Shown one piece after another: positions 3,603-62,641 of a stretch of DNA of 64,000 nt. The notes under the pieces are model-generated. The model saw nothing but the letters and a program-made list of their open reading frames with translations. It ran no database searches and was not told the origin of the DNA. Every line of letters starts with the position of its first letter. Within the stretch, counting starts at the first letter, position 1. Location of the stretch: positions 733,640 through 797,639 of the forward strand of contig CP129476.1 in assembly GCA_030583805.1 (NCBI GenBank), in the 5' to 3' direction. This DNA is from Patescibacteria group bacterium. GTDB taxonomy: Bacteria > Patescibacteriota > Patescibacteriia > SG8-24 > DYFX01. A program made the translations under genes and the position numbers.

Positions 3603-5115
<1,513 letters not shown>

Positions 5116-5944: not shown

Positions 5945-6021
5945 GGACGCGTAGCTCAGTTGGTTAGAGCGTCACACTGATAATGTGAAGGTCGATGGTT
6001 CGACTCCATCCGCGTCCACCA
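5945..6021 (+). tRNA. tRNA-Ile (anticodon GAT)
   Basis: Cloverleaf ggacgcg/tagctcagttggttagagc/tcaca-ctGATaa-tgtga/T-arm ggttcgactcc/cgcgtcc-a-CCA. Confidence 0.9.
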
Positions 6022-19636: not shown

Positions 19637-20007
19637 ACGCAGTCGGGTGGAGTGAAGGTTTTTCTGCAACGACAGAAAAACCAGGGGTGAGTAAATACCC
19701 CACTCCGGGCCTCTATCAGACAGTTCAGCCAGAGGTCGGACAGTGGCGATCGCCACCGCGGTTTTTCGCGTTTTACCCTAAAAAACAACAACTCGCCCTT
19801 CCGCAGGGAGAGTGCGTTTTAGCTGTGGTAAACGGAGCGGAAAACCACGGTATTGAATTCTGCACAAGACTATCATGGCACTTATCCCCTGTCAAGGAAA
19901 AACTGGCGAACGTGTCAAGGGGATAGATAATACCCGCTTTTGACAGCATATAATGACAGGAATTGAGCCTAATTTTAGAAATAATACGCTTTATCTGCCA
20001 GAAGGTA

Positions 20008-20036
20008 TTGACAAAATCCGTGTTCCGTGCTAGAGT
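20008..20036 (+). promoter_or_regulatory. sigma-70-like promoter driving the structured leader and hypothetical gene
   Basis: TTGACA (20008-20013), a 17-nt spacer, then TAGAGT (20031-20036). Confidence 0.5.
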
Positions 20037-20042
20037 ATCCGG

Positions 20043-20573
20043 TCAGAAAGATCCTTCCCCCGAGAGACATGGTGGGTTCGTCCCGATGTCGGCTTCGGCC
20101 GTTATACGGGGCACAGACGTCTCCTTGCGTGTTTTTCCGGCTTCGGCTGGAAAAGCTCACGAGGCACGGCTGCGGAACGCGACGCTTCGGCGTACTGCGG
20201 ACCATAACCCTCCAGTTCTGTCGGAGGAAGGATCGCCCCGTGCACGGGGCCGCCTCATTTCCATGGTTGACTTGGAGGAGTGCTATCCCGAAAGGCCCTC
20301 AAAAAGCCGGAAGGGACGAGTTCACCTTCGCAGGAAGATTCCGGCTCCGGCTGGAACCCTCCTCCGAGCGAGCTCGCAAGGCGCGTCGCTTCGGCGAATG
20401 CGCCAACCAACGCCTCCAAATCAACCGTGGAAACACAGGCCGGCTCAATAGTGAGCCGGCCTGTTGCGTCTACGGGACACCCTGTTCTAGGGTGCGTTAC
20501 ATGTCACGTTCGATGGACGTGGGGTAACACCCACACAACTGCCGACTACCAGCGTCGGCGTAAGGAGGGAGTC
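20043..20573 (+). ncRNA. candidate structured RNA or very long 5' leader (~530 nt, GC-rich, four cUUCGg tetraloop hairpins)
   Basis: Four GCTTCGGC hairpins at about 20090, 20147, 20181 and 20385. Further hairpins: ccccgtgcacgggg and the 10-bp stem ggccggctca-atag-tgagccggcc. There is no convincing coding potential before the strong SD at 20563-20571. Confidence 0.35.
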
Positions 20574-21884
20574 ATGACGACTCCAGGCAAGATCGCTCGT
20601 TTCATCGGTCCCAACGTCGAGCTCGGTCTGTACTCGGACCGCGGCTACCCCACCCTCAAGGTGACCTTCACCGACGCAGAGGTGCGGATGCTCCGACAGG
20701 TCGGCGTCAACTGGCACTACTTCGAGCTTCCCATCGGGAAGACGCGGGAGTTCCTCGAGACGCCCGACGGCGTCACCAACTGGACCGAGGTCCTCAAGTG
20801 GCGGTACAAGATCCGCGAGGAGAGGACCGGTCAGGACAAGTACTGCACTGCGGAGACGAAGGTTCTCGTGGTCTTGATCACGGAAGCCAGCGGGGAGTTC
20901 GTCTTCTACCTGAAGGCGGAGGTCCTGCGTCTCCGCCGCGATGACGGCAGCAAGTTCGTCGTCGAGATCAAGCGGCGCTGCCCCTCCATCAAGGAGGCGT
21001 GCAGCGAGCCGGCGAAGCAGGACGTCGCCATCGACGCCTACAACCTCGCCAGCAAGGCCATGCAGCACGACTATCCCATGGTCGTGGACGGCATGAAGCA
21101 GGTGCTCGAGATGTTCAACAACCTGCTCGAGGTCGAGACCGTCGTCTACAAGGAGGACGAGAAGACCGAGGAGCGGAAGACGAGCGTCGTGCGCCTGCCC
21201 CGGGACCCCGAGGAGATGAAGATGCTCACCGCGATCTGCGGCGAGATGTTCACTGCCCTGCAGAAGATCGACGTGATCGATGGACGCGTTGCGCGCATCG
21301 AGTACATGAAGGGCATCCAGGGCGGCGTCGCGGAGTTCCGCAAGGAGCTCGAGGCCAAGGACGACGAGGCCAAGAAGCGCGAGTCGCAGGCTGCGAAGTA
21401 CGCGCGGGCCGAAGCGCAGCGCGAGCGTGCTCGTGCGGCGCGTGCCAACAACCTGTCGGACAACGGGGCGCAAGCCTCCGAGCCCGCGCAGGTCGCTGCC
21501 ACGCAGGACACCGCCCAGGTCGTGAACAACGACAGCCAGGCGGCGCCCACCGCGACCGAGGCGCCGAAGCAGGCGCAGATCAGGACGGCGGCTCCCAAGC
21601 CTCCCGTCACGACTGCGACCCTCGCGACGGCTCCCAAGGCGAAGTCCTTCAAGGATCTCGCCAAGAAGAAGGGCGGCAACAACGGTGTTGCTCGCCCGCA
21701 GCAGACGCTCGCCGAGCAGCTCGCTGCCAAGGGTCTCGTGCCCGCTCCCACCCCCCAGCCGGCCGCTCCCCCGGCCGAAACCCCCGAGGCCGCTCCCGCG
21801 GCCGCCGAGACGAAGCTCCCCGAGGAGCCCGTCACCGAGACGACCCCGCCCCCGGCCGACCCCACGGTCGCCACCGAGAGCTGA
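20574..21884 (+). CDS. hypothetical protein (436 aa) with a C-terminal Ala/Pro/Gln-rich low-complexity tail
   Basis: Strong SD aaggaggga 5 nt before the ATG. Globular N-terminal ~330 aa, then a tail such as PAPTPQPAAPPAETPEAAPAAAETKLPEEP. The listed ORF extends upstream in frame only through GC-rich sequence. Confidence 0.6.
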   Translation: MTTPGKIARFIGPNVELGLYSDRGYPTLKVTFTDAEVRMLRQVGVNWHYFELPIGKTREFLETPDGVTNWTEVLKWRYKIREERTGQDKYCTAETKVLVVLITEASGEFVFYLKAEVLRLRRDDGSKFVVEIKRRCPSIKEACSEPAKQDVAIDAYNLASKAMQHDYPMVVDGMKQVLEMFNNLLEVETVVYKEDEKTEERKTSVVRLPRDPEEMKMLTAICGEMFTALQKIDVIDGRVARIEYMKGIQGGVAEFRKELEAKDDEAKKRESQAAKYARAEAQRERARAARANNLSDNGAQASEPAQVAATQDTAQVVNNDSQAAPTATEAPKQAQIRTAAPKPPVTTATLATAPKAKSFKDLAKKKGGNNGVARPQQTLAEQLAAKGLVPAPTPQPAAPPAETPEAAPAAAETKLPEEPVTETTPPPADPTVATES

Positions 21885-22003
21885 TCGCCTCGCTCAGTCA
21901 GACCAAAGCGCCGTCCACTTCTCTGTGGGCGGCGTTTGTACATTCGGCGGGTTTTTTTGTTTTCAGCCACCTGGTACAATAGGCCTGTAAAAATACAGGC
22001 TGC

Positions 22004-24208
22004 ATGTCACAGAAATCACGGAAGAACGGCAACGGAAAGAAAGAGAAATCCCAAGAAAAGGGGCCCCGCCCGGACGCGCTGGAATTGAGCGACGACACGA
22101 AACGCGGACTCTTCACGATCCTGCTCTTGATCGTCGCGCTCCTTTTTACGCTGTCGGCCTTCGGTCTCGCCGGCGTCATCGGCGAATATTTGAACGGATT
22201 CAATCACAAGCTGCTCGGCAAGTTGTACGTGCTCTTGCCGGTCTTTTTGCTCTTTGTCGCGACCGGCCGCATGCGTAGCACCTGGAAAACATTCGATGCG
22301 GCCGGCAAGCTCGGCATGGGACTCTTCATTCTCACGCTTGGCGCCTTCATCCACCTCATGATGGCGCGCCCGGAGAGCGTCGTCTTCGGAAAAGGCCTCG
22401 AGGAGGGCGGAGGCTACCTCGGCATGTTGATCAGCTACCTCTTGGAACAGGGCCTCGGCTTCTGGGGCGCAGCAATCGTCTTGTCGGGCGGTCTTTTGGC
22501 GGCGCTCCTTCTGCTGTTCAAGACCTCGCTTGAACGCCTGGTCTTCCCGCATCAAGCGCTCTTGTCGTTCTTGAAGAAGAAGCCGGATGAAAGCGGCGGC
22601 ACGATCGGCGCGAGCCCTTCCATGCCGCAGGAAGCCAAACCGTCGTTCGAGGCCAAGGAAATGAAGGACGACGAGGACGATGACGCGATGCCGACCCCGG
22701 TCATCGCGGACGGCCATATCGAAGGCGGTTTGAAGAAGAAGGTTTGGCGCAAAGTGACGCTGCCGCTCGATCTGCTCAACAACAAATCGATGAAGCCGAC
22801 CTCCGGCGACATCGGACGCAACCAGCACATCATCCAAAAGACGCTCGAGAACTTCGGCGTGCCGTCGGAGATGGGCGAGGTTTCGATCGGTCCGACGGTC
22901 ACGCAGTTCACGCTCAAACCCCACGACGGCATCAAGCTGAACCGCATCACGGCGCTGAACAACGACCTGGCGCTCGCGCTTGCGGCGCATCCGATCCGCA
23001 TCGAAGCGCCGATCCCTGGAAAATCGCTGGTCGGCATCGAAGTGCCGAACCAGGCCGTTGCCATCGTGAACTTGCGGGAAATCCTGGAGTCGCAGGAATT
23101 CCGTTCTTCACGCGCCGCCTTGCGCGTCGCGCTCGGCAAGGACGTCGCCGGCAAGCCGTGGCTCGCCGACCTCGCCAAGATGCCGCACATGCTCGTGGCC
23201 GGTTCGACCGGTTCCGGCAAAACCGTTTGCTTGAACTCGATCATCGTTTCGCTTCTCTACAGCCACGGTCCGGACGAGCTCCGCTTCATCATGGTCGATC
23301 CGAAGCGCGTCGAGCTCACGGCCTACAACAACATCCCGCACCTGCTCGTCCCGGCCATCACCGACGTCGCGAAAACGCTGAACGCCCTCAAGTGGACGAT
23401 CGGCGAAATGGACCGCCGCTTCACGCAACTCGCCCGCTACGGCAAGCGCGATATCGCTTCCTATAACGAAGCGGCTGACGAAAAGATGCCGTATCTCGTC
23501 GTCGTGATCGACGAGCTCGCCGACCTCATGGTCTCGAGCGCCGGCAAGGACGTCGAAACGTGCATCATCCGCTTGGCGCAAATGGCGCGCGCCGTCGGCA
23601 TCCACCTGATTCTCGCGACGCAGCGCCCGTCCGTCGACGTCATCACCGGCCTCATCAAAGCGAACTTCAACGCGCGCATCGCCTTTGCCGTCGCTTCCGG
23701 CACGGACTCGCGCACGATCCTCGACTCGCTCGGCGCGGAGAAACTCGTCGGCCGCGGCGACATGCTCTTCACCTCCGCCGAACTTTCGAAACCGAAGCGC
23801 TTGCAAGGCACCTACATTTCCGATCTTGAGATCAAGAAAGTCACGGACTTCATCAAGAGCAACTTCGACGCGCCGGAATACCAGCACGAGATCGTCGACC
23901 GGCTCGGCAACACCTCGAACGGCGTGGCCTTCAACGACGACGGCGGCAACGACGAACCCCTTCTCCAGGAAGCGCAGGACATCGTCGTGCGCGCCGGCAA
24001 GGCATCGGCTTCATTCCTCCAGCGCCGCATGAAGATCGGCTACGCGCGCGCGGCCCGCATTCTCGATTTGCTTGAAGAAAAAGGCGTGATCGGTCCCGGC
24101 GACGGCGCAAAACCGCGCGATATTCTGATGGCGCGCCCGGCCGGCGTCGAAGAAGAACCTGACGAAGAATCCATCGATGGCGAGATGCCGGAGGATCGTG
24201 TAGTCTAG
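22004..24208 (+). CDS. ftsK: DNA translocase FtsK/SpoIIIE
   Basis: N-terminal TM segments, Walker A MLVAGSTGSGKTVCLNSII, Walker B LVVVIDELADLM, and a C-terminal gamma-like winged-helix segment. Confidence 0.92.
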   Translation: MSQKSRKNGNGKKEKSQEKGPRPDALELSDDTKRGLFTILLLIVALLFTLSAFGLAGVIGEYLNGFNHKLLGKLYVLLPVFLLFVATGRMRSTWKTFDAAGKLGMGLFILTLGAFIHLMMARPESVVFGKGLEEGGGYLGMLISYLLEQGLGFWGAAIVLSGGLLAALLLLFKTSLERLVFPHQALLSFLKKKPDESGGTIGASPSMPQEAKPSFEAKEMKDDEDDDAMPTPVIADGHIEGGLKKKVWRKVTLPLDLLNNKSMKPTSGDIGRNQHIIQKTLENFGVPSEMGEVSIGPTVTQFTLKPHDGIKLNRITALNNDLALALAAHPIRIEAPIPGKSLVGIEVPNQAVAIVNLREILESQEFRSSRAALRVALGKDVAGKPWLADLAKMPHMLVAGSTGSGKTVCLNSIIVSLLYSHGPDELRFIMVDPKRVELTAYNNIPHLLVPAITDVAKTLNALKWTIGEMDRRFTQLARYGKRDIASYNEAADEKMPYLVVVIDELADLMVSSAGKDVETCIIRLAQMARAVGIHLILATQRPSVDVITGLIKANFNARIAFAVASGTDSRTILDSLGAEKLVGRGDMLFTSAELSKPKRLQGTYISDLEIKKVTDFIKSNFDAPEYQHEIVDRLGNTSNGVAFNDDGGNDEPLLQEAQDIVVRAGKASASFLQRRMKIGYARAARILDLLEEKGVIGPGDGAKPRDILMARPAGVEEEPDEESIDGEMPEDRVV

Positions 24209-45962: not shown

Positions 45963-48900
45963 TTATGGCGTTTGTTCAGTCGTCGTTCCTGATTCCGTCT
46001 CCGGCGGAGGCTCCGGCGCTGCAGGCGGCTCTTCGACAACGGGTTCCGGCGGCGGGGGCTCTTCTTCTGGAGGCGTTTCCGGCGTACCGCTGCCCGATTC
46101 CGTCACTCCTCCCGTCGGAGGCGTGCCCGTGCCGGATTCCGTCGGTTCATCTTGCGGCGCTTCCTCTTCAACCGCCGCCTGCTCAAGCAGGCCGTCGATC
46201 GGCAAGATCCAGTACGTGAACGGCGTCTCATCGATTGCTCCCTGGGCAAGCTTCAGGATGAACGAACCCTGATGCTTCTCGGACACCCACCAGTTGGAGC
46301 CCGGATTGCCTTCGAAGGTGATCACGATGACCGATTCCTCCGTCACGTGCGGGTTTTCCACCATGATCGCGTCGTACCCTGCGCGGAGCCGCGCCTTGCC
46401 GACAACGCGGTCAGCCGCCGCATCAGCTCGCAACGTCAGTTTTCTCGTGTTCACTTCCTTCGCCTCGATGTGTTCGGCGACGAGATAGCCGTCCGAGGAC
46501 ACGCTCCAGAGGCCGCTGGTCGAGACGATGGCGGAGACGTTGGAGAGCGTCGAGTTCTTGAAGTCGAGGAGGGATTCGCCCGTGATCGACAGCGCACCGC
46601 CTGCGGTCGCTCCCGCGAGCGCGGCCGGGCCGTTCCACCACGAGGGGTTCACGAAGACGGTGATGCGTCCGGTGCCGCTGCCGTTCCAGCCTTCAAGCGC
46701 GATACCGATGACGCGTCCGGCTTCCGCCGCCTTCATACCGACGCCAGGCGTCGAGGACGAGGTGATCGGGTCGCCCGGCTTGATCTCGCCGGATTCGGTA
46801 TTCACCTTGACCGGTACGCGGCCGGCGAGAGCCACGGGCTGGGTACCCGCCGTGCTCTTGCCCGTCAGGAAGCCGGGCTTGGTCGAGATGACGCCGAGGA
46901 GGGTGTTTTCGTAGGCGGCGTCGGACTTCTTCACGCCGTAGCCGTTGGTATTCGCCGCGTCGACCATGACGATGTCGCCGGCGTCGAGGTCCGGTGCCGC
47001 CGGGAACGTTTCGGCGTAGTCGAGGCCGCCGTTCACGGTGAGGGAACCCGCCAAGGCGAGGTCGCCAGCCTGGTTCAGCGAGGCGAGCGTCTGGCCGTTG
47101 TCATTCTTGAAGGTGAGTTGGTAGGCGCTGTCGCTCGTGACGTCGTTGCGGATCGTGATGTTGCGGGTGACGGCGGTGTTCGAAGCGCTGCTCCAAGCGG
47201 AACCGCCGAATTTCAGTGCATACGAGGAGAAGGCGGTGCCCGTCGCCGAGGCGATGTCGAGCGGCTTGAAGGCGAAGTCGTCGGCGAAGATCGAGGACGC
47301 GCCGTCGTTCGTGATCGAGAGGCCGAGGTGGAAGCCAGGGTTCACGAAGATTTCAATCTTGCCTTCTCCGGGACCTTCCCAGTGATCAAGCGCGAAACCG
47401 ACGATCATGCCAGGCTTCGTCGCTTTCATGGCGACGCCTGAAATGGACGACGTCGTGAGCGGGTCGCCCGGACGAATCACGCCATTCGCGGCGGTAACGC
47501 GGGTCGGGACGCGTCCGATCAGGGCCACGGGAGCGGTGGTCGATGAAGAGGCCGTTACACCCTTACCGAAGGATTGGTACGGGTTGGTGGAGATGACACC
47601 GATGATCTTTGCCTCGTACGGAGCGGTCGATTCCGTAAGGATCGACGACGTGTTCGTGGCGTATGTTTCGAGACGCACGCCCGTCAGCGGGTTGAAGAGC
47701 TCGTCCTGGTACGAGATGACCGCGTCGGTGGCGATGAGCAGGGTTCCGGTCGGATACGCTTCTTCCAAGGCGTACCACTCGGCAACGTCGGACGGCGTCG
47801 AGCTGCACTCCCGGAACTCAACGTCGCCAAAACTGTCGGCCGTGTCTTTACAGACGCCAATCGTCGTGTCGCCCGTAGGGTTAATGTCGAACTCGATGTT
47901 GCCTTCGACGTCGAGTGTCGCTCCCGGAGCGGTGCCGCCGATATGTACTTGACCACCCGCGTCGATTGAGAACGGCGTGGAGTCGCTGCCATAGTTGCCG
48001 CCGTCGTCTTCAACACGAAGTGCAAGGCCAGTACCGGCGTAATCGATCTGCAGACCAGCGCCGCTCGCTGCCGTGTTGTTCTGCTCCACGCGCAACACGT
48101 CAGCCGTATGCGTACAGGTGCCGAGCGTGGTGATACAGCCGTCGGAGAATTCACCGACCGCAGCACTCAGCGTCAACACCTGGGCACTGCCGTTGATGGT
48201 GGGCTGACGTACCGCGCGGAAGGTCGAGCCGCCGCTCGTGGTGGTCGTGGTATACGTCGGCTGCTGGTTCAACAAGATCATCGAGCCAGTGCTCATAGCC
48301 GCGGCCGTCGAGATATTTTCGATCAAGAGACCGGCACCGGACGAGATATCATCGAGACTCACGGAAATTGCGTTACCCGTCGTGATGGTCTGGGCCTGGA
48401 GCTGGAGCGAGTTACTGTTTGTGCGCGTGGTCAGGATGTCGAGGTCGGCATTCGGGGTGCTGTCACCGATACCGATTTCTCCGGAAGAATCAATCGTCAG
48501 ACGGGCTGTGTCGGCGGTACCAAGGTGCAGAGAGTTGCTGCCGTGAATCTGGAGCGAGTTGGAAAGGACGCCGGACAAGATATCACCTTCATCACCAATA
48601 CCGATGGATGCGATGAGGCTGCCCGCTTCCGTGTACTCAATCTGGGCGAGCGTGGCGCCGCTGTTAGTGTTGGCGATCCTGAGGGTCGTTCCGGTCGTAT
48701 CGGAAATGTGCAGTTTGCCTGAAGGAGAAGCAGTACCGATACCGACGCTTCCGGAGCTCGCAATGTAAATGCCGGAAGTTTCCGCATGCTGCGGGCCAAT
48801 CTGAATCGCCTGGCCGGAGGAGTAGATCTGCGCACGGCGGCCGTTCGTGTCGCGCCAGCCGAGCTGCAGGATCGACGTGCCGCTCGTGTCGTAGGCGATC

Positions 48901-51900
48901 TTGGCCGAGCCGCCCGAGAGCCACAAATCCTTCCAGCGGCGGTTATAGTCGCCGAGGGAGTAGGTGTTGTCGGCTGACGGCGTGAGGTTGCCGGTGATAC
49001 GAGCGCCGGTCGTGGTGATCACGTGCGTCGTGGAAGCGGAGCCGACGGTCAGGCTGTTGCGAATCGTCGTCGTGCCCGTGGTCGCACCCATCGTGAGGTC
49101 GGTCGCCGCAAAGGCGAATTCAAGCGTTGGCGGGGTCGCAGCGAGCTGGCCGAAGGATGCGCCGATGTCGATTGTGCCGCCGTTCACGGTGAACTCAGTA
49201 GAGCCGAACAAGGTGAAGTTGTCGTCGAGAATTGCCTTCGTCTGTCCCGCCGTGATGAAGTCGATGCGGTTGTCGCCGCCGTTCGCGAAACCGGTGTCCG
49301 GATCATCGATGAAAGCGATCGAGGCGTCGTTGCCGCCGCCGCTGGCGAAGAAGGCGTCGGTGGCGATCCGCGTCGCGGTCGAGCTCACGGTGAACATGCG
49401 GATGCTGTAGTCGCCGGCGGCGTTGGTACGGTTCTGCACCTCGAAGATGTTGCCGGTACCGCCGATGGTATCGCCGATCGTGAGGGCGCCAACGGATGGC
49501 GTGATCGAGATTTCCGGAGAACCCGTGGCGGCGAGATACGCGGAGTTGAGCGGTGCCGATGGCGCGCTGACCCACGTCAGCGTGCCGGAGCCGTTGTTCT
49601 GCAGGAAGGTCGAGGCGCCGCCCTGTGAAGACGGCCAGGAGTACGGCACGTTATTAATCTTCACGAGGTTACCGGACTGGTTGACTTCGAATGTACTTGT
49701 AGCGGTACCAACGGTGAGTTTGTTTGCAGGCGCGCTGTTACCGATACCGACCAGGCCGGTAGGACCAACCATGAACATCGGGGTGCCGCCGACCGTGGCC
49801 TGGATCAGGTTTTGAGCGAAGCCGGCTACCGGCGCGATAGAGAGGGCTGGGAACGGCCAGAATTCGTCGGCATCTTGCGCGATTGTGGCAGAACGCGAAA
49901 GTTCAAAGGCGCGACCGGCAACGATATTGCCTTGGTGATCGATGGTGAAAATGTCGGTGCCGCCAAACGTCGTAACCCGAACCGCGGTCCCATCGTTATC
50001 CACCGTATGTCGGACATGCAGCGTTGCAGTCGGAGCGTTTGAGGAGATAGCGACCGATGTCGCACTGACCGTCAGGTAGCGCTGGCTGTAATCCCCTGCC
50101 GCGGTCGTACGGTTCTGCACTTCGAAGACGTTGCCGGTACCCGAAAGCGTATCGGCAATTGTGAGAGCGCCGACGGACGGCGTAATCGAGATTTCCGGAG
50201 AGCCGGTGGCGGCAAGATACGCCTGGTTCAGATTGCCGCCGCTGGAAACAACAGACCACGAGAGGTTGCCGCTGCCGTCATTCTGCAGCACCGTCGAGCC
50301 GCCGCCCTGCGAGGCCGGCCAGGAGTACGGAACGTTGTTGACCTTGATCAGGTTACCGGCCGCGTTGACTTCGAACGTGCTGGTGGCAGTACCAACCGTC
50401 AGTTTGTTGGCCGGCGAAGTGTTGCCGAGTCCGAGGCGTCCTCCGGTGAGGATGAGCGCGCTGCTACCCGATGAGTCGCCAATGCGGAGCGCGCCGGTTT
50501 CCGCGTGCAGGTAAAGGTCTGTATTTCCCGTGTCCGCATCACCAATGTAACCGCGACGCGTGGAGTTGTTTTGATCGAAGAACGTTATGTAACCAAGGCC
50601 GCTGTTGCCGGTTCCGTTCGATGCCTGAATACGGAACGTCTCTGAAGCGCCTGTGATATGCAAGGGTGCCGACGGCGTGGCCGTGTTAATACCGAGGCGG
50701 TACGCCGTAATGTTGTTGCCAGGGTTGATCAAGACGGCCGTCGAGCTGACGGTGAAGTAGCGTCCATCGAAGTCGCCCGCCGTGGTCGTACGACTCTGAA
50801 CCTCGAAAAGGTTGCCGATGCCGGTTCCCTTATTGATACCGCCCGTAAGCTGGTCGGCGATGGTCAATCCGCCCTGCGTGCCGTTCGCAAACAGTTCTGC
50901 CGTGGAAGTTGAGCTGTTAAACGTTTGAAGCATCGTTGAACTGCCGCCACAGCCCGTACACGTGCCGGTCACCGTCAAATTCGTGATGGTCGTACCGGTC
51001 GAGCTCACGTAGAAGTACCGATGCGTGTAGCCTCCGACTCCGGACGTGTTCTGAATCTCGAAGATGTTTGACGTCGGGGAAACTGCGTCGTCGGCGACGG
51101 TCAAACGTGCGCTCGGCGCATTCGTGCCGATGGCGAGGTTGCCGGCGTTGTTGAGACGCATGCGCTCAACGCTCGTACTCGATCCATTGGCGGTCGTCAT
51201 GAACGTGATGCGTCCAGGCATGTCGTTATTGCCCGGCGTATCATCGACCGACACCTTAATGAAAGCGGCTGGAATGTATTCATCGCCGTCATAGCCCCAC
51301 GACGACCAGTTCAAGATGTCGTCGCCATTCTCAACGACGAGCTCGCTGCCGGATGAGCCGCGCGCCTTCTGCACGACAATCTGGTTGCCGTTGTTGTCCG
51401 TCGAGAACCTTGTCAGGTACACCGAGGTTGACGTGCTTTGAATATCAAGCTTGCCGATTGGATTCGTCGTGCCGATACCGACAAGACCAGAAGGACTGAT
51501 CGATATACCTTGGCTATCACCCAAACTCGGCGTGATTTGAATCTGCTGGCCCGAAGAGTGAATGAGGGCGCGGCGGCCGTTCGTATCACTCCAGCCAAGC
51601 CTCAAGATCGACGTGCCGCTCGTGTCATATGCGATGTTGGCGCTGCCGCCCGAGAGCCACAAATCCTTCCAGCGAAGCGCCGGGTCACCAAGCGTATACG
51701 TATTGTCGGCAGACGGCGTGAGGTTGCCTGTCACGCGCGCGCCGGTCGTTGTCAGCGCGTAGGTGGTCGAAGCACTGCCGATAATCGTCGCGGTCGAGCT
51801 GATCGTGAAGTAGGGGCTCGTGTTAAGGCTGTTTGAGACTTCGAAGAGGTTGTGCGTCGGTGTCGCGACAGAGTCGCGCACGGTCAACGTTGCGGTCGGG

Positions 51901-54900
51901 GTGTAGGAGGATCCGCCGATCAGCACCTTACCGTTCGTCATTACCGCGAACTTCATCGCATTACCGGCAACGTTGTTGGAGTGGACAGAGAAGGCGTGAA
52001 TGTCCGCCGAAGACGTGTTCGCGATGACGGCCAGCGCTTGTCCGCGAGGCGAAGCACCGGCGCCGCTCGTTGTCGTTGCAATCACGCTGTTAGACGCGAC
52101 GACCTGGAATGTGCCGGTGCCGATCGGCAGCGGCGTGACGTAAACCGACGTCGAGCTCACCGTAAAGTAGCGGGACGAATAGTCTCCTGCCGCCGTCGTG
52201 CGATTCTGAACCTCGAAAATATTGCCCGTGCCCGAGAGCGTGTCGGCGATCGTGAGAGCTCCCTGCGTGGAGTTGGTATAGATTTCCGTCGTACCAGTCG
52301 CCGCAAGGTAGGTCGCATTCATCGTCGGCGTGCTGCCCGTCGAGAGCTCCGTGAAGCCCGCTCCGTTGTAGACGTACAGCGCATCTCCCGTGCTATTCCA
52401 CACGATGTCGCCCTCTGCCGTTCCCGTCACCGCCGTCGGGACGCCGGCGAAGGTCGGGATCTGGAGACCCTGGTTCACGGCATGCGCCGGGGCGATGAGG
52501 CGGTTGATGTAGCGCGTCGAGGTCGAAGAAACCGAGAAGAGGCGGTTCGTGAAAGAATCCTGGACTTCGAAGATGTTGTTGGACTGGGCGGCAAAGCCGC
52601 GGAGCTGGAACTGGCTCGTCGTCGAAGCGGAGACGGCAAGCATGCTGCCCGTGACGTCGATGTCGCCTTCGGCATCGAGCTTGAAGCGCAAGGAGCCGTT
52701 GTTGGCGATCGAGAAGAGCGTCTCGTTGCCGGTCGGGGCCGAGGGGTTCACGTAGACCGTGCCGTTCGAGAGGCCGGTACCCTGCGGATCGCCGTTCACG
52801 ACCAGGCTGTTGCGGATCCGGGTCGTGCCGGGGCCGTTCGCGCCCATGATGAGCGTCGTGGCCGCGCCGCCGACTTCCAAGATTGTCGGCGTCGCAGCCA
52901 GGAAGCCGGAAGAGGCGCCGAAGTCGATGACGCCGCCGTTCACGATGAGTTCGGTCGAGCCGAACAGGGTGAAGTTGTCTTCCAGAATGATCTTCGTCTG
53001 TCCGGCCGTGATGAAGTCGATACGGTTGGTGCCGCCGTTCGCGAAACCGGTGTCCGGATCATCGATGAAGGCGACCGAGGCGTCGTTGCCGCCGCCGCTG
53101 GCGAAGAAGACGTCGGAAGCGATCCGCGTACCGGTCGCGCTCACGCTGAACATGCGGATGCTGTAGTCGCCGGCGGCGTTGGTGCGGTCCTGCACCTCGA
53201 AGATGTTGCCGGTGCCGCCGAAGGTGTCGCCGATCGTGAGAGCGCCGACGGACGGCGTGATCGAGAGTTCCGGAGAACCCGTGGCGGCGAGATATGCCTG
53301 GTTGAGGTTGGTGGAACCTCCGGCTGCGGCCCAGGAGAGGTTGCCGTTGCCGTCGTTTTGCAACACTGTCGAGGCGCCGCCCTGAGAGGAAGGCCAGGAG
53401 TACGGGACGTTGTTGATTTTCACGAGGTTTCCTGACTGGTTCACCTCGAACGTGCTGGTCGCGGAACCGACGGTCAGGCGGTTGGCGGGATTCAAGTTAC
53501 CGATTGAAAACTTGTGATCCAGAGCGTTGTTCGTCGCATTGACCAGCGTCGCCGTCGCGCTGACGGAGAAGTACTTCTGCGAAAGATCGCTGTTACCAAT
53601 CTCAAAGATATTGTTGGTCGTGCCTACAAGTGCCGCAGCCGTAAATGTCGCGTTCAAGCTTGTCGGTGTAAGATTGCCGACGCCGAAACGACCATTCTCC
53701 GAGCCCGCAAAGATGGTGCTGAATGCGCCATTTACTATCACGAATTCCGCATTGGAGCCATCGTTGTCACTGTCGAGCTGGAGGATCATGCCACCTTCCC
53801 CATAAATGCCAAAGTTGCCGTCACCCGTGACTTGGATGGTGTTGTCGCTCTCAGCCGTCGCAAGCACGAGCGCGGGGCCGGCGGTGTACGTCGTTCGAAT
53901 CTGGTTTGCAATGGTCGTAGCCGTAGCACTCACGGTGAGATAGCGAGTACTCCAATCACCCGCAGCGGTCGTCCTGTTTTGGATCTCGAAAATGTTACCG
54001 GTACCCGATAGCGTATCGGCGATTGTGAGGGCACCGATTGAGGGCGTGAGCGAAATTTCCGGAGAGCCGGTGGCGGCGAGATATGCCTGGTTGAGGTTGG
54101 TGGAACCTCCGGCTGCGGCCCAGGAGAGGTTGCCGTTGCCGTCATTCTGCAGCACGGTCGAGCTGCCGCCCTGCGAAGCCGGCCAGGAGTACGGGACGTT
54201 GTTGACCTTGATCAGGTTACCGGCCGCGTTGACTTCGAACGTACTGGTAGCAGAGCCGACCGTGAGGCGATTGGCGGGCGCGCTATTGCCGATGCCGACC
54301 AGGCCGGTAGGACCAACCATGAACATCGGGGTGCCGCCGACCGTGGCCTGGATCAGGTTTTGAGCGAAGCCGGCTACCGGCGCGATAGAGAGGGCTGGGA
54401 ACGGCCAGAATTCGTCGGCATCCTGCGCGATCGTGGCAGAACGCGAAAGTTCAAAGGCGCGACCGGCAACGATATTGCCCTGGTGATCGATGGTGAAAAG
54501 GTCCGTGCCGCCAAACGTCGTAACCCGAACCGCGGTCCCATCGTTATCCACCGTATGTCGGACATGCAGCGTTGCAGTCGGAGCGTTTGAGGAGATAGCG
54601 ACCGATGTCGCACTGACCGTCAGGTAGCGCTGGCTGTAATCCCCTGCCGCGGTCGTACGGTTCTGCACTTCGAAGACGTTGCCGGTACCCGAAAGCGTAT
54701 CGGCAATTGTGAGAGCGCCGATCGAAGGGGTAATGGAGATTTCCGGCGAACCGGTGGCGGCGAGATACGCCTGGTTCAGGTTCACGAGACCGTTGGCTGC
54801 AACCCAGCTCAGCGTGCCTGCTCCGTTGTTCTGCAGCACCGTCGAGGCCGCGCCCTGTGAGGACGGCCAGCTGTAGATAACATTGTTAATTTTGCGAATA

Positions 54901-57900
54901 TCACCGCTGAAGTCGACTTCGAACGTGCTGGTGGTGGAGCCGACGGTGAGGCGGTTGGCAGGTGCGCCATTGCCGATACCGACGTTATAGTGCCCCAGGT
55001 TATTGAACGGGTTGATGAGCGTTGACGTCGAACTCACGGTGAAATACCGATAACTGTAATCACCGCCCGTATTCGTACGGTTCTGGATTTCGAAGACGTT
55101 AAATGTCGGAGACGCGACCGTGGATGCAACGCTCAGGAACGCTGAAGGCGTCAGCGTGTTCAAACCGGTCACGCTCGTCGTGTAGAAGTTCAGTCGATTA
55201 GAGCCGCCTGCCTGGATGAAGAGGTTGCCGCCGGAACCGTTCGTACCAATCGTGCCGCTCGTGGCGTCTTGGTTGATGATGAAGCGCAATGTGCCTCCTG
55301 TTGCCAAGTTTACGCGCGATTCCGTGCCGTGGTTGATGACCATGGCCGGAAGACTGCCGGCAATATGGAGAGAGTATTGCGGGTTTTGCGTGCCGATACC
55401 GACGTTTCCAGCCGCATCAATCGTAATACCTTGATTCTGATTGCCGGCACGCAACGTGAGCGGAACCTCTGCCGGCGTCTTGATCAAGCCGCGCAAACCA
55501 TTCGTCGTGTTGAATCCAAGCTGCATGATCGTCGTACCCGACGTGTCGTACGCGATGTTGGCGCTGCCGCCCGAGAGCCACAAATCCTTCCAGCGAAGCG
55601 CCGGATCGCCAAGCGAGTACGTGTTGTCCACGGAAGGCGTAAGATTGCCGGTCACGCGCGCGTTCGCCGTGTTCAGAGCAGACGTGCTGGAAGATGAGCC
55701 GAGCGCCAGGATTCCGCTTTCATCAAGCGTCATGACCGTACCGCCTGCGCCGTTCAGCCAGCTATACGCCTCGCTAGAATCGCCATTTGCATCAACACGG
55801 AAGAAGATCGAATCGTCACTGTAAAGATTGAAACCGTTCTCGCCGATGCCGTAGATCTCGACACCGCCGGCACTGCTCGTAATTGCCACAACCGTTCCAC
55901 CAGCAGGATTCGAGATCGCTAGTGCGCTGCTGATCGAAGCCGACGCCGTGTTAATCAAGGTGTTCGTTGAGCTCACGGTCAAGTATTTCGTGCTCCAATC
56001 CCCCGCCGCATTCGTGCGGTTCTGAATCTCGAAAATGTTGCCAGTGCCTGAGAAGGTGTCGGCAATGGTAAGCGCGCCGATCGACGGCGTGAGGGAGATC
56101 TCGGCGGTGGAAGTCGAGGCGAGATAGGCCTGATTCAGGTTCACGAGACCGTTGGCTGCAACCCAGCTCAGCGTGCCGGCTCCGTTGTTCTGGAGCACCG
56201 TCGAGGCTGCGCCCTGCGAAGAAGGCCAGCTGTAGACGACATTGTTGATCTTCAAGATATTCCCGCTCTCGTCGACTTCGAACGTGCTCGTGCCGGAACC
56301 GACGGTGAGCCGGCTAGCCGGTTTCAGGTTGCCGATGCCGACATTGCCGTTATCCTGAATCACCAACTTTGTACCGGTGGTGCCGCTCGCTTTGTAGAAT
56401 CCGAGAGAATCGGCTGTGCCGTTCAACGAAGACCGGTTCGTCAGCATCATCCATGAGGCGTTGGTGGCTCCGCCCGTCAACCAGAACGCCGCGTCATTAC
56501 CGTCACCGCCGCTCGCACTGAGCTTAATACGTGCCTCGGAACTCGTGACGTACAGGCGGTCGGAAGCGGTCGGCGGAGTCGCGCCCATGCCGACAGTACC
56601 GTTGCCACGGACCGTAAAGGCAGTGTTTGCACCCGCTGTCGTCGTGACGTTCAGTGCCGCATCGCCTGAACTGCTTGTTTGCGTTTGGATGAAAACACCA
56701 TTGCTGTTGGTCACGTTACTGTTGATGAAACGCATTCCGGCGCCGTTTGCCGAAGTATCAAGCACATCGATCTTGTATTGCGAACTTGGAGCCGTCCCCA
56801 CCCCGACATTGCCGGCGAGGTACGTGCTGGTGGAGCTCACCGTGAAGTAGCGGGACGAGTAGTCGCCCGCGGCGTTGGTGCGGTCCTGGATCTCGAAGAT
56901 GTTGCCGGTGCCCGAGAAGGTGTCGGCGATCGTGAGAGCACCGATCGAAGGCGTGAGAGAGATCTCGGCGGTGGAGGTCGAAGCGAGGTAGGCCTGGTTC
57001 AGGTTGACGAGGCCGGACGCGTCGACCCAGGTGAAGTTGCCGGAGCCGTCGTTTCGCAGCACCGAACCGAGCGCGCCCTGGGAGGACGGGAAGCGCGCGG
57101 GGAGACCGTTGATCGTTTCGAAGTTTCCGGAAGAGTTGACGACAAGCGTATTCGTGGTACCCACGATGAAGCGGGCCCCGGCGCCGACCGAGGTCGCGGT
57201 CGCGGAGACCGAGAACAGGCGGTCGGTGATCGTACTCTGCACTTCAAAGATGTTGTTGCTCTGCGAGGCCGCGCCCCGGAACACGAACTGCGCCGTCGAG
57301 GAGGCGGCGGTGGCGAGGAGAGAGCCCGTGTGCGTGATGTCGCCTTCCTTGTCGATCTGGAAGCGGACGCCTCCGTTGTCGGCGATGCCGAAGAGGGTTT
57401 CCGAAGCGGAAGCGTTCGCGGGGTTGATGTAGAGAGAGCCGTTGCCGACGCCCGTACCCTGCGGATCGCCCGTAATGACGAGGTTGCCGTTGGCCGTGGT
57501 ACTCGGGATGTAGGCGGTCGTGGAACCGGAAGAGGTGACGTCGAGATCATCGAGGCGGTCGGCGTTCAGGGCATAGGCGGCGGCGGTGAGACGCTTCCGA
57601 GGGGTCATTTCGGCGTCCGCGCCGATCGTAATGCCGAGAGTCACGACGTTGTTGTCGAAGAGACCGTCCGGAATCTCGTTGTCGCCCGCTTCGCCGAGCT
57701 GGGTCGAGAAGACGCCGTTCGTCACCGTGACGGATTTGGCCGTCGGGGTGCCGCAGGAGCCGCGAGCCGAATACAGACAGGTGCCGTCGCCGTCGTACAG
57801 GCGGAAAATGACGGACAGAGCCCCGTTCGGGACGGGTACGCCGCCCGAATCGGTGACCCGGGCTTGATAGTTCAGGACCTTGGGGACGGAGTTGGCGGCG

Positions 57901-58019
57901 TAGGCTGGCGTCGGGAATGAACCCGACAGCAACGACAAGACCAGGGCGGCCAAAACGGCCGTCCTCGCCGCGCGTTTCAACGCGCGGAGAAGCGTAGCGA
58001 TGTACGCGGTCTCTCTCAT
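45963..58019 (-). CDS. giant secreted repeat protein (about 4,018 aa) built from >8 copies of a ~130-aa module, with an acidic Pro/Glu/Thr-rich C-terminal tail
   Basis: Signal peptide from M16 (MRETAYIATLLRALKRAARTAVLAALVLSLLSGSFPTPAYA). Recurring module ...ANRLTVGSATSTFEVN..GNLIKVNNVPYSWPSSQGGASTVLQNDGNGNLSW...NLNQAYLAATGSPEISITPSVGALTIADTLSGTGNIFEVQNRTTAAGDYS.RYLTVSAT.... Near-identical DNA copies occur inside the gene. Confidence 0.75.
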   Translation of the reverse strand: MRETAYIATLLRALKRAARTAVLAALVLSLLSGSFPTPAYAANSVPKVLNYQARVTDSGGVPVPNGALSVIFRLYDGDGTCLYSARGSCGTPTAKSVTVTNGVFSTQLGEAGDNEIPDGLFDNNVVTLGITIGADAEMTPRKRLTAAAYALNADRLDDLDVTSSGSTTAYIPSTTANGNLVITGDPQGTGVGNGSLYINPANASASETLFGIADNGGVRFQIDKEGDITHTGSLLATAASSTAQFVFRGAASQSNNIFEVQSTITDRLFSVSATATSVGAGARFIVGTTNTLVVNSSGNFETINGLPARFPSSQGALGSVLRNDGSGNFTWVDASGLVNLNQAYLASTSTAEISLTPSIGALTIADTFSGTGNIFEIQDRTNAAGDYSSRYFTVSSTSTYLAGNVGVGTAPSSQYKIDVLDTSANGAGMRFINSNVTNSNGVFIQTQTSSSGDAALNVTTTAGANTAFTVRGNGTVGMGATPPTASDRLYVTSSEARIKLSASGGDGNDAAFWLTGGATNASWMMLTNRSSLNGTADSLGFYKASGTTGTKLVIQDNGNVGIGNLKPASRLTVGSGTSTFEVDESGNILKINNVVYSWPSSQGAASTVLQNNGAGTLSWVAANGLVNLNQAYLASTSTAEISLTPSIGALTIADTFSGTGNIFEIQNRTNAAGDWSTKYLTVSSTNTLINTASASISSALAISNPAGGTVVAITSSAGGVEIYGIGENGFNLYSDDSIFFRVDANGDSSEAYSWLNGAGGTVMTLDESGILALGSSSSTSALNTANARVTGNLTPSVDNTYSLGDPALRWKDLWLSGGSANIAYDTSGTTIMQLGFNTTNGLRGLIKTPAEVPLTLRAGNQNQGITIDAAGNVGIGTQNPQYSLHIAGSLPAMVINHGTESRVNLATGGTLRFIINQDATSGTIGTNGSGGNLFIQAGGSNRLNFYTTSVTGLNTLTPSAFLSVASTVASPTFNVFEIQNRTNTGGDYSYRYFTVSSTSTLINPFNNLGHYNVGIGNGAPANRLTVGSTTSTFEVDFSGDIRKINNVIYSWPSSQGAASTVLQNNGAGTLSWVAANGLVNLNQAYLAATGSPEISITPSIGALTIADTLSGTGNVFEVQNRTTAAGDYSQRYLTVSATSVAISSNAPTATLHVRHTVDNDGTAVRVTTFGGTDLFTIDHQGNIVAGRAFELSRSATIAQDADEFWPFPALSIAPVAGFAQNLIQATVGGTPMFMVGPTGLVGIGNSAPANRLTVGSATSTFEVNAAGNLIKVNNVPYSWPASQGGSSTVLQNDGNGNLSWAAAGGSTNLNQAYLAATGSPEISLTPSIGALTIADTLSGTGNIFEIQNRTTAAGDWSTRYLTVSATATTIANQIRTTYTAGPALVLATAESDNTIQVTGDGNFGIYGEGGMILQLDSDNDGSNAEFVIVNGAFSTIFAGSENGRFGVGNLTPTSLNATFTAAALVGTTNNIFEIGNSDLSQKYFSVSATATLVNATNNALDHKFSIGNLNPANRLTVGSATSTFEVNQSGNLVKINNVPYSWPSSQGGASTVLQNDGNGNLSWAAAGGSTNLNQAYLAATGSPELSITPSVGALTIGDTFGGTGNIFEVQDRTNAAGDYSIRMFSVSATGTRIASDVFFASGGGNDASVAFIDDPDTGFANGGTNRIDFITAGQTKIILEDNFTLFGSTELIVNGGVIDFGASSGFLAATPTILEVGGAATTLIMGANGPGTTRIRNSLVVNGDPQGTGLSNGTVYVNPSAPTGNETLFSIANNGSLRFKLDAEGDIDVTGSMLAVSASTTSQFQLRGFAAQSNNIFEVQDSFTNRLFSVSSTSTRYINRLIAPAHAVNQGLQIPTFAGVPTAVTGTAEGDIVWNSTGDALYVYNGAGFTELSTGSTPTMNATYLAATGTTEIYTNSTQGALTIADTLSGTGNIFEVQNRTTAAGDYSSRYFTVSSTSVYVTPLPIGTGTFQVVASNSVIATTTSGAGASPRGQALAVIANTSSADIHAFSVHSNNVAGNAMKFAVMTNGKVLIGGSSYTPTATLTVRDSVATPTHNLFEVSNSLNTSPYFTISSTATIIGSASTTYALTTTGARVTGNLTPSADNTYTLGDPALRWKDLWLSGGSANIAYDTSGTSILRLGWSDTNGRRALIHSSGQQIQITPSLGDSQGISISPSGLVGIGTTNPIGKLDIQSTSTSVYLTRFSTDNNGNQIVVQKARGSSGSELVVENGDDILNWSSWGYDGDEYIPAAFIKVSVDDTPGNNDMPGRITFMTTANGSSTSVERMRLNNAGNLAIGTNAPSARLTVADDAVSPTSNIFEIQNTSGVGGYTHRYFYVSSTGTTITNLTVTGTCTGCGGSSTMLQTFNSSTSTAELFANGTQGGLTIADQLTGGINKGTGIGNLFEVQSRTTTAGDFDGRYFTVSSTAVLINPGNNITAYRLGINTATPSAPLHITGASETFRIQASNGTGNSGLGYITFFDQNNSTRRGYIGDADTGNTDLYLHAETGALRIGDSSGSSALILTGGRLGLGNTSPANKLTVGTATSTFEVNAAGNLIKVNNVPYSWPASQGGGSTVLQNDGSGNLSWSVVSSGGNLNQAYLAATGSPEISITPSVGALTIADTLSGTGNVFEVQNRTTAAGDYSQRYLTVSATSVAISSNAPTATLHVRHTVDNDGTAVRVTTFGGTDIFTIDHQGNIVAGRAFELSRSATIAQDADEFWPFPALSIAPVAGFAQNLIQATVGGTPMFMVGPTGLVGIGNSAPANKLTVGTATSTFEVNQSGNLVKINNVPYSWPSSQGGASTFLQNNGSGTLTWVSAPSAPLNSAYLAATGSPEISITPSVGALTIGDTIGGTGNIFEVQNRTNAAGDYSIRMFTVSSTATRIATDAFFASGGGNDASIAFIDDPDTGFANGGDNRIDFITAGQTKAILDDNFTLFGSTEFTVNGGTIDIGASFGQLAATPPTLEFAFAATDLTMGATTGTTTIRNSLTVGSASTTHVITTTGARITGNLTPSADNTYSLGDYNRRWKDLWLSGGSAKIAYDTSGTSILQLGWRDTNGRRAQIYSSGQAIQIGPQHAETSGIYIASSGSVGIGTASPSGKLHISDTTGTTLRIANTNSGATLAQIEYTEAGSLIASIGIGDEGDILSGVLSNSLQIHGSNSLHLGTADTARLTIDSSGEIGIGDSTPNADLDILTTRTNSNSLQLQAQTITTGNAISVSLDDISSGAGLLIENISTAAAMSTGSMILLNQQPTYTTTTTSGGSTFRAVRQPTINGSAQVLTLSAAVGEFSDGCITTLGTCTHTADVLRVEQNNTAASGAGLQIDYAGTGLALRVEDDGGNYGSDSTPFSIDAGGQVHIGGTAPGATLDVEGNIEFDINPTGDTTIGVCKDTADSFGDVEFRECSSTPSDVAEWYALEEAYPTGTLLIATDAVISYQDELFNPLTGVRLETYATNTSSILTESTAPYEAKIIGVISTNPYQSFGKGVTASSSTTAPVALIGRVPTRVTAANGVIRPGDPLTTSSISGVAMKATKPGMIVGFALDHWEGPGEGKIEIFVNPGFHLGLSITNDGASSIFADDFAFKPLDIASATGTAFSSYALKFGGSAWSSASNTAVTRNITIRNDVTSDSAYQLTFKNDNGQTLASLNQAGDLALAGSLTVNGGLDYAETFPAAPDLDAGDIVMVDAANTNGYGVKKSDAAYENTLLGVISTKPGFLTGKSTAGTQPVALAGRVPVKVNTESGEIKPGDPITSSSTPGVGMKAAEAGRVIGIALEGWNGSGTGRITVFVNPSWWNGPAALAGATAGGALSITGESLLDFKNSTLSNVSAIVSTSGLWSVSSDGYLVAEHIEAKEVNTRKLTLRADAAADRVVGKARLRAGYDAIMVENPHVTEESVIVITFEGNPGSNWWVSEKHQGSFILKLAQGAIDETPFTYWILPIDGLLEQAAVEEEAPQDEPTESGTGTPPTGGVTESGSGTPETPPEEEPPPPEPVVEEPPAAPEPPPETESGTTTEQTP
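49560..50230. repeat. intragenic near-identical direct repeat, copy A (~670 bp, ≥95% identical to copy B)
   Basis: Directly aligned by eye with 54110-54780. For example ...ggatcaggttttgagcgaagccggctaccggcgcgatagagagggctgggaacggccagaattcgtcggcatc... matches over hundreds of bp. The listed ORFs 49812..50042 and 54360..54590 translate almost identically. Confidence 0.8.
54110..54780. repeat. intragenic near-identical direct repeat, copy B
   Basis: See copy A. The offset is about 4.55 kb. Further diverged copies lie near 48.9, 51.6, 53.2 and 55.5 kb. Confidence 0.8.
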
Positions 58020-58106
58020 GTCGTTTTCGGGTGTTTTCACCCGGTTCGGTTCCCTGCCAGGCAAGGCGCCGAACCGGATGCCGGAGCGTTGGCTCCGGAC
58101 TCCGGC

Positions 58107-62087: not shown

Positions 62088-62641
62088 GCGTCGATTTCCA
62101 CAAAGCGCGCAGCATTCGGGCACGACGAAAAACTCCGACAAGGGTCGTGATTGGACAACTCGAAAGGAGCCTCACGCGTTATGGGCGCAAGCCTATTTCC
62201 TTCACGCAGATACGCCTCCCCTTTCCCCGCTGACCACGGGAATTAGGTACTACAAAAACAATTCTGCGAGTAGGAGGCGGGACTCGCGGCCCCGTTCATT
62301 CAGGTCGTCTTTACCTGAACGATTCGCATAGCCACCTTGGTAATCACCCCGTAGTGGATGCGAGAAGAATGCTGCACGATATATTCTCCTCGCACTATGC
62401 AAGGGCATAATACCATAAAATAGGGGAAAAGTCAATCCAAATCTGGGCTAACCTTAGCCTATATATTTCTTTTCCACAGGTCATTTATTTGATATTTCAC
62501 AACTTGTACACAGAAACTCACACTCTATCCACAGAGTTGTGCACAGTTGTGTGTGAGTTGTCTTACTTGTCAAGTATATATTAGACAAGCACCTCTTTTC
62601 TCTAATGTTACCACCCAGGTTTTTTAACGTGGTTTACTTAT

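Follow-up and report, generated by a model that had tools for sequence, protein, structure and literature searches.

A conserved structured RNA, very probably of two duplicated domains, between rpoB and an orphan gene next to ftsK in Patescibacteria

What is encoded in the 937 nucleotides (nt) that separate rpoB, on the minus strand, from a 436-amino-acid (aa) open reading frame (ORF), on the plus strand, in the chromosome of a Patescibacteria group bacterium? The gap lies in the 64,000-nt stretch of contig CP129476.1 that we analysed (hereafter the window), and a preliminary description of the sequence had placed there a GC-rich leader or noncoding RNA (ncRNA) of about 530 nt behind a consensus promoter. 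We find that the gap harbours an RNA and that this RNA is almost certainly a real, conserved, structured ncRNA of the plus strand. The region is structured, as proposed, but its conserved part is shorter, a core of about 395 nt (20041–20436) and one hairpin; nor is it GC-rich for this genome, as the GC content is 0.59–0.62 in the RNA region and 0.58–0.67 in the flanking genes. On the other side of the gap, rpoB truly starts at ATG 19636 on the minus strand, as judged by the gene call in locus L001.

The plus strand folds far more stably than shuffled sequence, with z-scores of −11.9 for 20041–20470 and −9.6 for 20040–20580; the antisense strand scores −7.9. The four cUUCGg hairpins of the preliminary description are all present (plus-strand GCTTCGGC at 20092, 20140, 20184 and 20388, where the rate over the whole window predicts about 0.02 in 305 nt), and a fifth hairpin, with a UCCG loop, can be added at 20341–20354.

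Is this fold conserved? Because the downstream ORF has only two homologues by sequence, FtsK homologues were used as the route to relatives, which were gathered through the contigs of FtsK homologues of graded identity. Every contig with an FtsK at least 63% identical and with enough upstream sequence has, in this order, rpoB (minus strand), a gap of 0.74–1.5 kb, an unnamed ORF of 305–472 aa and ftsK. With nhmmer, 19940–20435 is conserved across all FtsK-selected relatives with enough upstream sequence, and conservation of the final ~100 nt 5' of the ORF is limited to the closest of them. A pattern built from two invariant motifs, GGAGGAGTGC-N(50–66)-CCGGCNNCGGCTGGA, retrieved nine true loci from 185,579 species genomes and six from metagenome contigs; twelve further matches (L016, L020, L021, L025–27, L029, L031, L033 and L036–38) were rejected by inspection and nhmmer as unrelated GC-rich coding DNA. 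After deduplication there were 18 distinct RNAs, with 54–87% nt identity to the window, plus one single-domain variant (L040). One locus is labelled Candidatus Paceibacter sp. and others Patescibacteria group bacterium; L006, L024 and L030 stem from Hainich groundwater well H41. The range of the RNA is a narrow clade within the Patescibacteria, made up of relatives of Candidatus Paceibacter.

Pair counts were made on a MAFFT alignment, A2; a model-based alignment, A6, was left unused because antisense hits were mixed into it. The RNAalifold consensus on A2, which is somewhat favoured by having been taken from the same alignment that scores it, comprises 110 pairs, and compensatory changes occur in 54 of these. 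Pairing is kept in 95.0% of cells, compared to 36–54% when the 3' partners are slid by 1–3 columns, and double changes are seen in 54 pairs (10–19 when slid) and 197 cells (12–33 when slid). The margin over these controls is very large: none of 500 shuffles reached any of the observed covariation measures, and the single-sequence minimum free energy (MFE) fold of the window has the same helices.

Could the region nevertheless be without function as an RNA, because it codes for protein or because stable GC-rich hairpins happen to cluster in a spacer? In the window alone, two long stop-free frames do cross it (19963–20451 and 20027–20527). In the homologues, however, these frames are broken, and a GTG-20280 extension is not conserved either. 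In several homologues, none of the six frames is free of stop codons, most pairwise indels are not a multiple of three (102 of 121), and column variability has no codon periodicity (0.215, 0.195, 0.224). Neither stop-free frame of the window has a Pfam match. The covariation lies far above the controls, and this and the coding tests together refute the explanation. The locus thus combines the homologues, the compensatory pairs and the lack of a conserved reading frame that are generally looked for in a conserved structured ncRNA, and the earlier view of a stable structured RNA rather than coding sequence has stood up on all three points. The plus strand is the functional one, because the covariance model scores 157–194 bits on it and 43–65 bits on the minus strand, and because the invariant G·U pairs of the RNA (see below) would become A·C mismatches on the opposite strand.

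How is the RNA built? Very probably, it consists of two homologous domains of about 180 nt that arose by tandem duplication, each a multi-branch junction with a long closing helix and three hairpins. Domain I (20055–20229, plus strand) was delimited by RNAalifold and pair counts, and the single-sequence MFE agrees. Its closing helix, P1, pairs 20055–20076 with 20209–20229 and encloses hairpin a (20080–20112), which has a cUUCGg tip, the long hairpin b (20114–20172), whose invariant tip UUCCGGCUUCGGCUGGAA at 20135–20152 contains a G·U pair, and hairpin c (20174–20203), with tip CGCUUCGGCG. Domain II (20257–20434, plus strand) has the same four elements: the closing helix P1' (20257–20281 with 20410–20434) and hairpins a' (20286–20316), b' (20317–20376, with the invariant tip UUCCGGCUCCGGCUGGAA at 20339–20356) and c' (20380–20404, again with tip CGCUUCGGCG).

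Consistent with a duplication, a covariance model of domain II (R1) matched domain I over its full length in the RNAs searched (49–77 bits, E 1e-13 to 1e-21). Hairpins b and c are spaced by 46 nt in both domains of most RNAs, and 34 domain units can be aligned end to end; in L012, the second unit is divergent (17 bits). L040, whose FtsK is 65% identical, has a single unit behind the same kind of promoter. Therefore, the family exists as both singlet and tandem. The covariance model found no unit in L039 (FtsK 56%, different gene order). The internal duplication goes beyond the preliminary description, as do the 3' limit of the core near 20436 and the hypervariable, orphan character of the ORF discussed below.

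The constraint on the RNA is unevenly distributed. In both domains, hairpin b ends in an invariant or nearly invariant tip, UUCCGGCUYCGGCUGGAA, with the G·U as its third pair; in domain I of L012, one C-G pair is replaced by U-A and the G·U is retained. The loop of this hairpin is variable (UUCG, UCCG or CUCG). In the closing helices, the outer part covaries freely in each domain, and the inner part shows no variation on either strand in 17 of 18 sequences. In domain II, this inner part pairs UUGGAGGAGU with ACGCCUCCAA, so that a GGAGG (20274–20278) resembling a Shine-Dalgarno (SD) sequence is paired with an anti-SD-like CCUCC (20413–20417). Near-invariant columns also form the start of A2, where the conserved 5' segment (CCGGUCAG..., 20041–20054, plus strand) may form a small 5'-terminal hairpin, as ribosum-scored alifold pairs columns 5–8 with 17–20. 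Between this segment and domain I, two loci have an extra ~20-nt cUUCGg/cUCCGc hairpin (L006, 4243–4290; L017, 2390–2430; A2 columns 21–42).

The GUGCA-capped stem that had been described before (GCCCCGUGCACGGGGC, 20235–20250, plus strand) does exist, but as a lineage-variable linker hairpin between the domains and outside the conserved core: it is present in the window, L003/L023 and L015, and replaced or absent in L018, L014 and clade 2. Two further candidates were rejected. A long-range pairing of the RNA 5' end (GGUCAG) with the start-codon region, suggested by the single-sequence fold, has only 4–5 bp and is not kept everywhere. Mimicry of 16S rRNA was considered as well, and the hairpin with GCUUCGGC in the 16S of the source organism (4023) has different flanks.

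Does the RNA belong to a known family? With the 4227 covariance models of Rfam 15 at gathering thresholds, the whole window yields only 16S rRNA and tRNAs. For 19700–22100, searched permissively at E ≤ 10, the best scores are 16–18 bits compared to thresholds of 42–80, and the single-domain L040 gives only sub-threshold miRNA and CRISPR noise. These scans agree with the earlier failure to match the region to common families, and a search of the full-text literature retrieved no description of the RNA. It adds a new family to the large orphan structured RNAs and leaders known from bacteria and is absent from Rfam 15 and from the literature searched. With rpoB, a Pfam-less orphan ORF and ftsK as flanks, the locus is also not that of a retron, DRT, IscB/TnpB or bridge RNA.

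The single copy per locus, the strong promoter and the conserved position beside core genes might instead point to a housekeeping RNA (RNase P RNA, 6S RNA, signal recognition particle RNA or tmRNA) that has diverged beyond recognition by the Rfam models. Yet even the permissive search at E ≤ 10 gave no match, and the tandem or single multi-branch architecture is unlike any of these RNAs as they are generally known. The RNA is moreover absent from the next outgroup, L039, and nine of 185,579 species genomes by pattern scan is far below the spread expected of a housekeeping RNA, an identity that we consider highly improbable.

Where does transcription start, and does it continue into the ORF? 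The promoter noted in the preliminary description is present at 20008–20036 on the plus strand: TTGACA (20008–20013) and TAGAGT (20031–20036) form a sigma-70-type promoter, TTGACA-17 nt-TG-c-TAGAGT, that matches 10 of 12 positions and has an extended −10, with 0.4 promoter-like sites expected in shuffles. The motif TTGACA-17-TGnTAnnnT is found in all aligned homologues, and its position would place the transcription start at about 20041–20045. In all five loci scanned (the window, L003, L004, L012 and L040), the top promoter-like site (10–11 of 12, with TG) directly precedes the RNA. Between the RNA and the ORF, no second plus-strand promoter-like site was found in the window, L003, L004 and L040, and L012 has one weaker site (9 of 12). 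A possible second promoter of clade 2, a conserved CATTGACAA after the RNA, was rejected, as no −10 lies at 16–18 nt from it and the scan of L004 finds none.

Every lineage has some hairpin after the core, and its form varies: it is GC-rich, 12–14 bp long and covarying in the clade of the window, weak in clade 2 and about 90 nt long in L010, L035 and L040. In the window (20436–20471, plus strand), a 12-bp GC-rich stem with an AUAG loop is followed by a weak tail, UUGCGUCU; the perfect stem-loop GGCCGGCUCA-AUAG-UGAGCCGGCC at 20438–20461 is as reported, but the full stem extends from 20436 to 20463 and has 12 bp instead of 10. Among close relatives the stem covaries, GGCC changing to GGUC or GACC with the matching change on the other side. 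A canonical U-rich tail follows this hairpin only in L003/L023, and a strict terminator scan flags no post-core site in the window, L004, L012 and L040. Because the same genomes carry a canonical hairpin and U-run in the rpoB leader, on the opposite strand, the weak tails after the RNA are probably meaningful. Candidate roles for the post-core hairpin are partial termination, attenuation and protection of the 3' end.

From the end of the core to the start codon of the ORF, the distance is 125–315 nt across loci. In the window, a variable spacer (20472–20540, plus strand) that cannot be aligned across clades ends in a C/A-rich, G-poor tract (~20523–20540). Just 5' of the ribosome-binding site follows a small hairpin, GCCGAC-UACCAGC-GUCGGC (20541–20559, plus strand). 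By eye, a UGCCGRC-loop-GYCGGC hairpin can be recognised in nearly all loci, after the C/A-rich tract and 3–12 nt before the SD, and its changes preserve pairing (for example GCUGGC/GCCGGC in L001). This hairpin may act in translation, or it may form the protected 5' end of a processed mRNA. The SD itself, AAGGAGG at 20562–20568 on the plus strand, had been noted before, but the start codon is ATG 20574–20576 and not at 20575; the 16S rRNA 3' end of the source genome is canonical (...CACCUCCUUU).

What is the downstream gene? The orphan ORF (436 aa, 20574–21884, plus strand; QY323_04020, on a 1.17-Mb contig) directly follows the RNA in every case: in 17 of 17 loci examined, an ORF is found downstream of the RNA and on the same strand. 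Next in the long loci comes ftsK, which encodes a DNA translocase (22004–24208, plus strand, in the window). The ORF belongs to no Pfam, PHROG, NCBIfam or PADLOC family. Sequence search returns only three unnamed proteins, and a profile of 18 N-terminal domains finds only eight; the distribution of the ORF family is as narrow as that of the RNA. An AlphaFold2 model has a predicted local distance difference test score (pLDDT) of 49.6, with a beta-rich N-terminal domain (residues ~30–140) at 65–84 and a low-complexity, Ala/Pro/Thr/Gln-rich C-terminal tail of low confidence, and Foldseek returned no match below E 1e-3 in the PDB. The locus displays a conservation gradient, with FtsK first, then the RNA, and the ORF far behind: in the closest relative, L018, FtsK is 91% identical (aa), the RNA 87% (nt) and the N-terminal domain of the ORF 32% (aa), and in L003, FtsK is 90% and the RNA 79% identical and the N-terminal domain is not detectable by tblastn. 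Across clades, the identity of the ORF product is 13–33%. This fast divergence could result from diversifying selection or from relaxed constraint.

A promoter, tandem RNA repeats, a hairpin and an ORF are formally also the layout of a type III toxin-antitoxin module such as ToxI/ToxN, in which RNA repeats precede a leaky terminator and a toxin gene. However, the repeat unit here is about 180 nt and not the ~36 nt generally known for such modules, and a single-domain variant exists. Moreover, the ORF matches no ToxN/AbiQ, Pfam or PADLOC defence family, and the rpoB–ftsK synteny is fixed in all long contigs, contrary to mobile DNA. A toxin-antitoxin function thus seems most improbable.

What, then, does the RNA do? 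It may well be a cis-acting leader, co-transcribed with the ORF–ftsK unit. The preliminary description had offered either an independent ncRNA or a cis-acting leader; that the RNA is structured is borne out, and the evidence leans to a co-transcribed leader. We favour this reading because the strongest promoter-like site precedes the RNA in each scanned locus and a canonical terminator is found in one lineage only. The place of the RNA ahead of a same-strand ORF in all 17 loci examined, the matching narrow distribution of the ORF family and the unvarying GGAGG/CCUCC inner helix beside a freely covarying outer part also speak for it. Between the ORF and ftsK (21884–22004), the scan revealed no promoter-like or terminator-like site on the plus strand, which, with the weak post-core tails, favours read-through into the ORF and probably into ftsK. 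Judging from these signals in the DNA, co-transcription of the RNA with the ORF is likely, and ftsK is probably in the same transcription unit.

As a leader, the RNA would form the 5' part of one transcript with the orphan ORF and ftsK and would act in cis on their expression. A conserved cellular factor or ligand would be recognised by the invariant hairpin tips and the junctions, and its binding would alter either read-through at the post-core hairpin or access to the ribosome-binding site. The CCUCC of domain II, held by the GGAGG of the closing helix, has the arrangement that would be expected of an SD-sequestering switch. Hypothetically, this CCUCC would pair either with the GGAGG of the closing helix or with the SD of the ORF, and the invariance of both strands of the inner helix is what such a three-way constraint would produce.

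Several points weigh against a leader. Co-transcription is deduced from missing consensus signals. Between the core and the start codon lie 125–315 nt of unalignable spacer, an unusually long distance for an expression platform. We found no mutually exclusive alternative pairing that is conserved across clades. In clade 1, the strong, covarying, GC-rich hairpin after the core, with its U-rich tail in L003, would also suit a discrete 3' end. Riboswitch aptamers do not typically have invariant helix tips, which suggest a macromolecular partner here, and large ornate RNAs such as OLE sit in operons without being cis-regulators.

Alternatively, the RNA could be a stable, stand-alone or processed ncRNA of about 430 nt that acts in trans or as part of a ribonucleoprotein, in the manner of OLE and OapA. 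Termination or cleavage at the post-core hairpin would release it, and its partner would possibly be the product of the downstream ORF. The strong near-consensus promoter would serve such an RNA, and a covarying 12–14-bp hairpin stands right at the end of the core, with a U-rich tail in L003/L023. A long, unconserved spacer separates it from the ORF, the pre-SD hairpin could mark the 5' end of a processed mRNA, and conservation of the RNA far exceeds that of the ORF; in addition, hairpin tips that are invariant in both domains suggest a two-fold binding partner. However, a canonical terminator is missing after the RNA in most lineages, whose genomes do use such terminators elsewhere, and four of the five scanned loci have no second promoter-like site for the ORF. 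The ORF product is also unlikely to be the specific partner, because it is hypervariable (13–33% identity) while the hairpin tips are invariant. A stand-alone RNA is therefore a possibility that we take seriously but doubt.

Several known RNAs can be compared. OLE is a large, multi-domain, strongly covarying RNA of extremophilic Firmicutes that lies within a transcription unit, upstream of oapA, and has a narrow range. Similarly, the RNA described here is large, multi-domain, covarying, of narrow range and placed just upstream of one lineage-restricted gene; in contrast, it has no OLE match in Rfam, occurs in another phylum and consists of two homologous domains, and its ORF is hypervariable and matches no family, OapA included. 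In ssrS–ygfA, processing of a dicistronic transcript yields an ncRNA (6S RNA) from its 5' end. Here too, a strong promoter and a 5' structured RNA are followed by a protein gene without an evident promoter of its own, but paired multi-branch junctions replace the rod with a central bubble and there is no Rfam match to 6S RNA.

Singlet and tandem glycine riboswitches resemble the present family in that a folded unit occurs once (L040) or twice behind one promoter and upstream of a gene on the same strand, with the closing helix of each unit as the most plausible switching element. The RNA differs from them in having no Rfam match, units of ~180 nt with invariant helix tips instead of conserved ligand-pocket junctions, non-metabolic downstream genes (an orphan ORF and ftsK) that suggest no ligand, a start codon 125–315 nt past the core and no conserved alternative pairing that we could find. 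With ROOL, GOLLD, raiA and HEARO, it shares the size class, a complex, multi-stem, covarying fold and an orphan function; yet none of their Rfam models matches it, and its place in the chromosome is fixed in all loci examined.

In a more speculative proposal, to which we attach rather low confidence, this new class of large tandem-domain RNA, specific to one lineage of ultra-small symbiotic bacteria, would form a particle with a conserved cellular partner through its two invariant G·U hairpins and would couple the state of the partner to the expression of ftsK and the hypervariable orphan protein. If this were true, cell division or host interaction in Patescibacteria would have a control point made of RNA. 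To our knowledge, large, ornate, covarying bacterial RNAs of unassigned function are rare and each has so far led to new biochemistry, and very few ncRNAs have been described in Patescibacteria, a huge uncultivated radiation. Heading a unit with ftsK and a fast-diverging protein, the RNA may bear on the control of division or of surface and host interaction in symbionts with reduced genomes. The singlet-to-tandem duplication offers a natural handle for studies of structure and function; the narrow distribution, about 19 sequences, limits the reach of the finding.

What lies on the divergent, rpoB side of the gap? rpoB has a conserved 5' leader of about 230 nt on the minus strand (window 19637–19930), without a match in Rfam at gathering thresholds. 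Its promoter-like sequence, TTGACA (19895→19890)-17 nt-TG-a-TAGTCT (19872→19867), is the same in 16 of 16 loci. A hairpin and U-run (CUCUCCCUGCGGAAGGGCGAG UUGUUGUUUUUU) lie in the leader at 19812→19780, and clade 2 has an equivalent in the same place, CGCCCCGGGGAAAGGGGCG and a U-run, in which pairing is kept by compensatory changes. This hairpin probably acts as an attenuator of transcription, like that of E. coli rplL–rpoB. Between rpoB and the RNA, all loci also keep a second TTGACA (19928→19923) unchanged, and a series of TGNCA boxes (TGTCAAGG, GTGTCAAGGGG, TTTGACAGC, ATGACAGG, CTGCCAG and TTGACAA) extends over 19880–20013. These boxes may be sites for a regulator common to both divergent transcription units.

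Outside the Patescibacteria loci, the exact 18-mer of hairpin b, TTCCGGCTYCGGCTGGAA, occurs in 34 IMG/VR viral contigs (L041–L074), several times a rough chance estimate of a few. In these contigs, several of which look interrelated, the isolated hairpin alone matches the RNA model and no full RNA is found; a link to phages was therefore rejected.

Elsewhere in the window, Rfam at gathering thresholds locates a 16S rRNA gene at 3603–5115 and no 23S rRNA gene within the 64 kb, and separate tRNA genes follow the 16S rRNA gene at 5945, 6585 and 7565. Therefore, the rRNA operon is unlinked. Two very large ORFs adjoin each other on the minus strand, one of 4033 aa (45963–58064) and one of 1344 aa (58107–62141).

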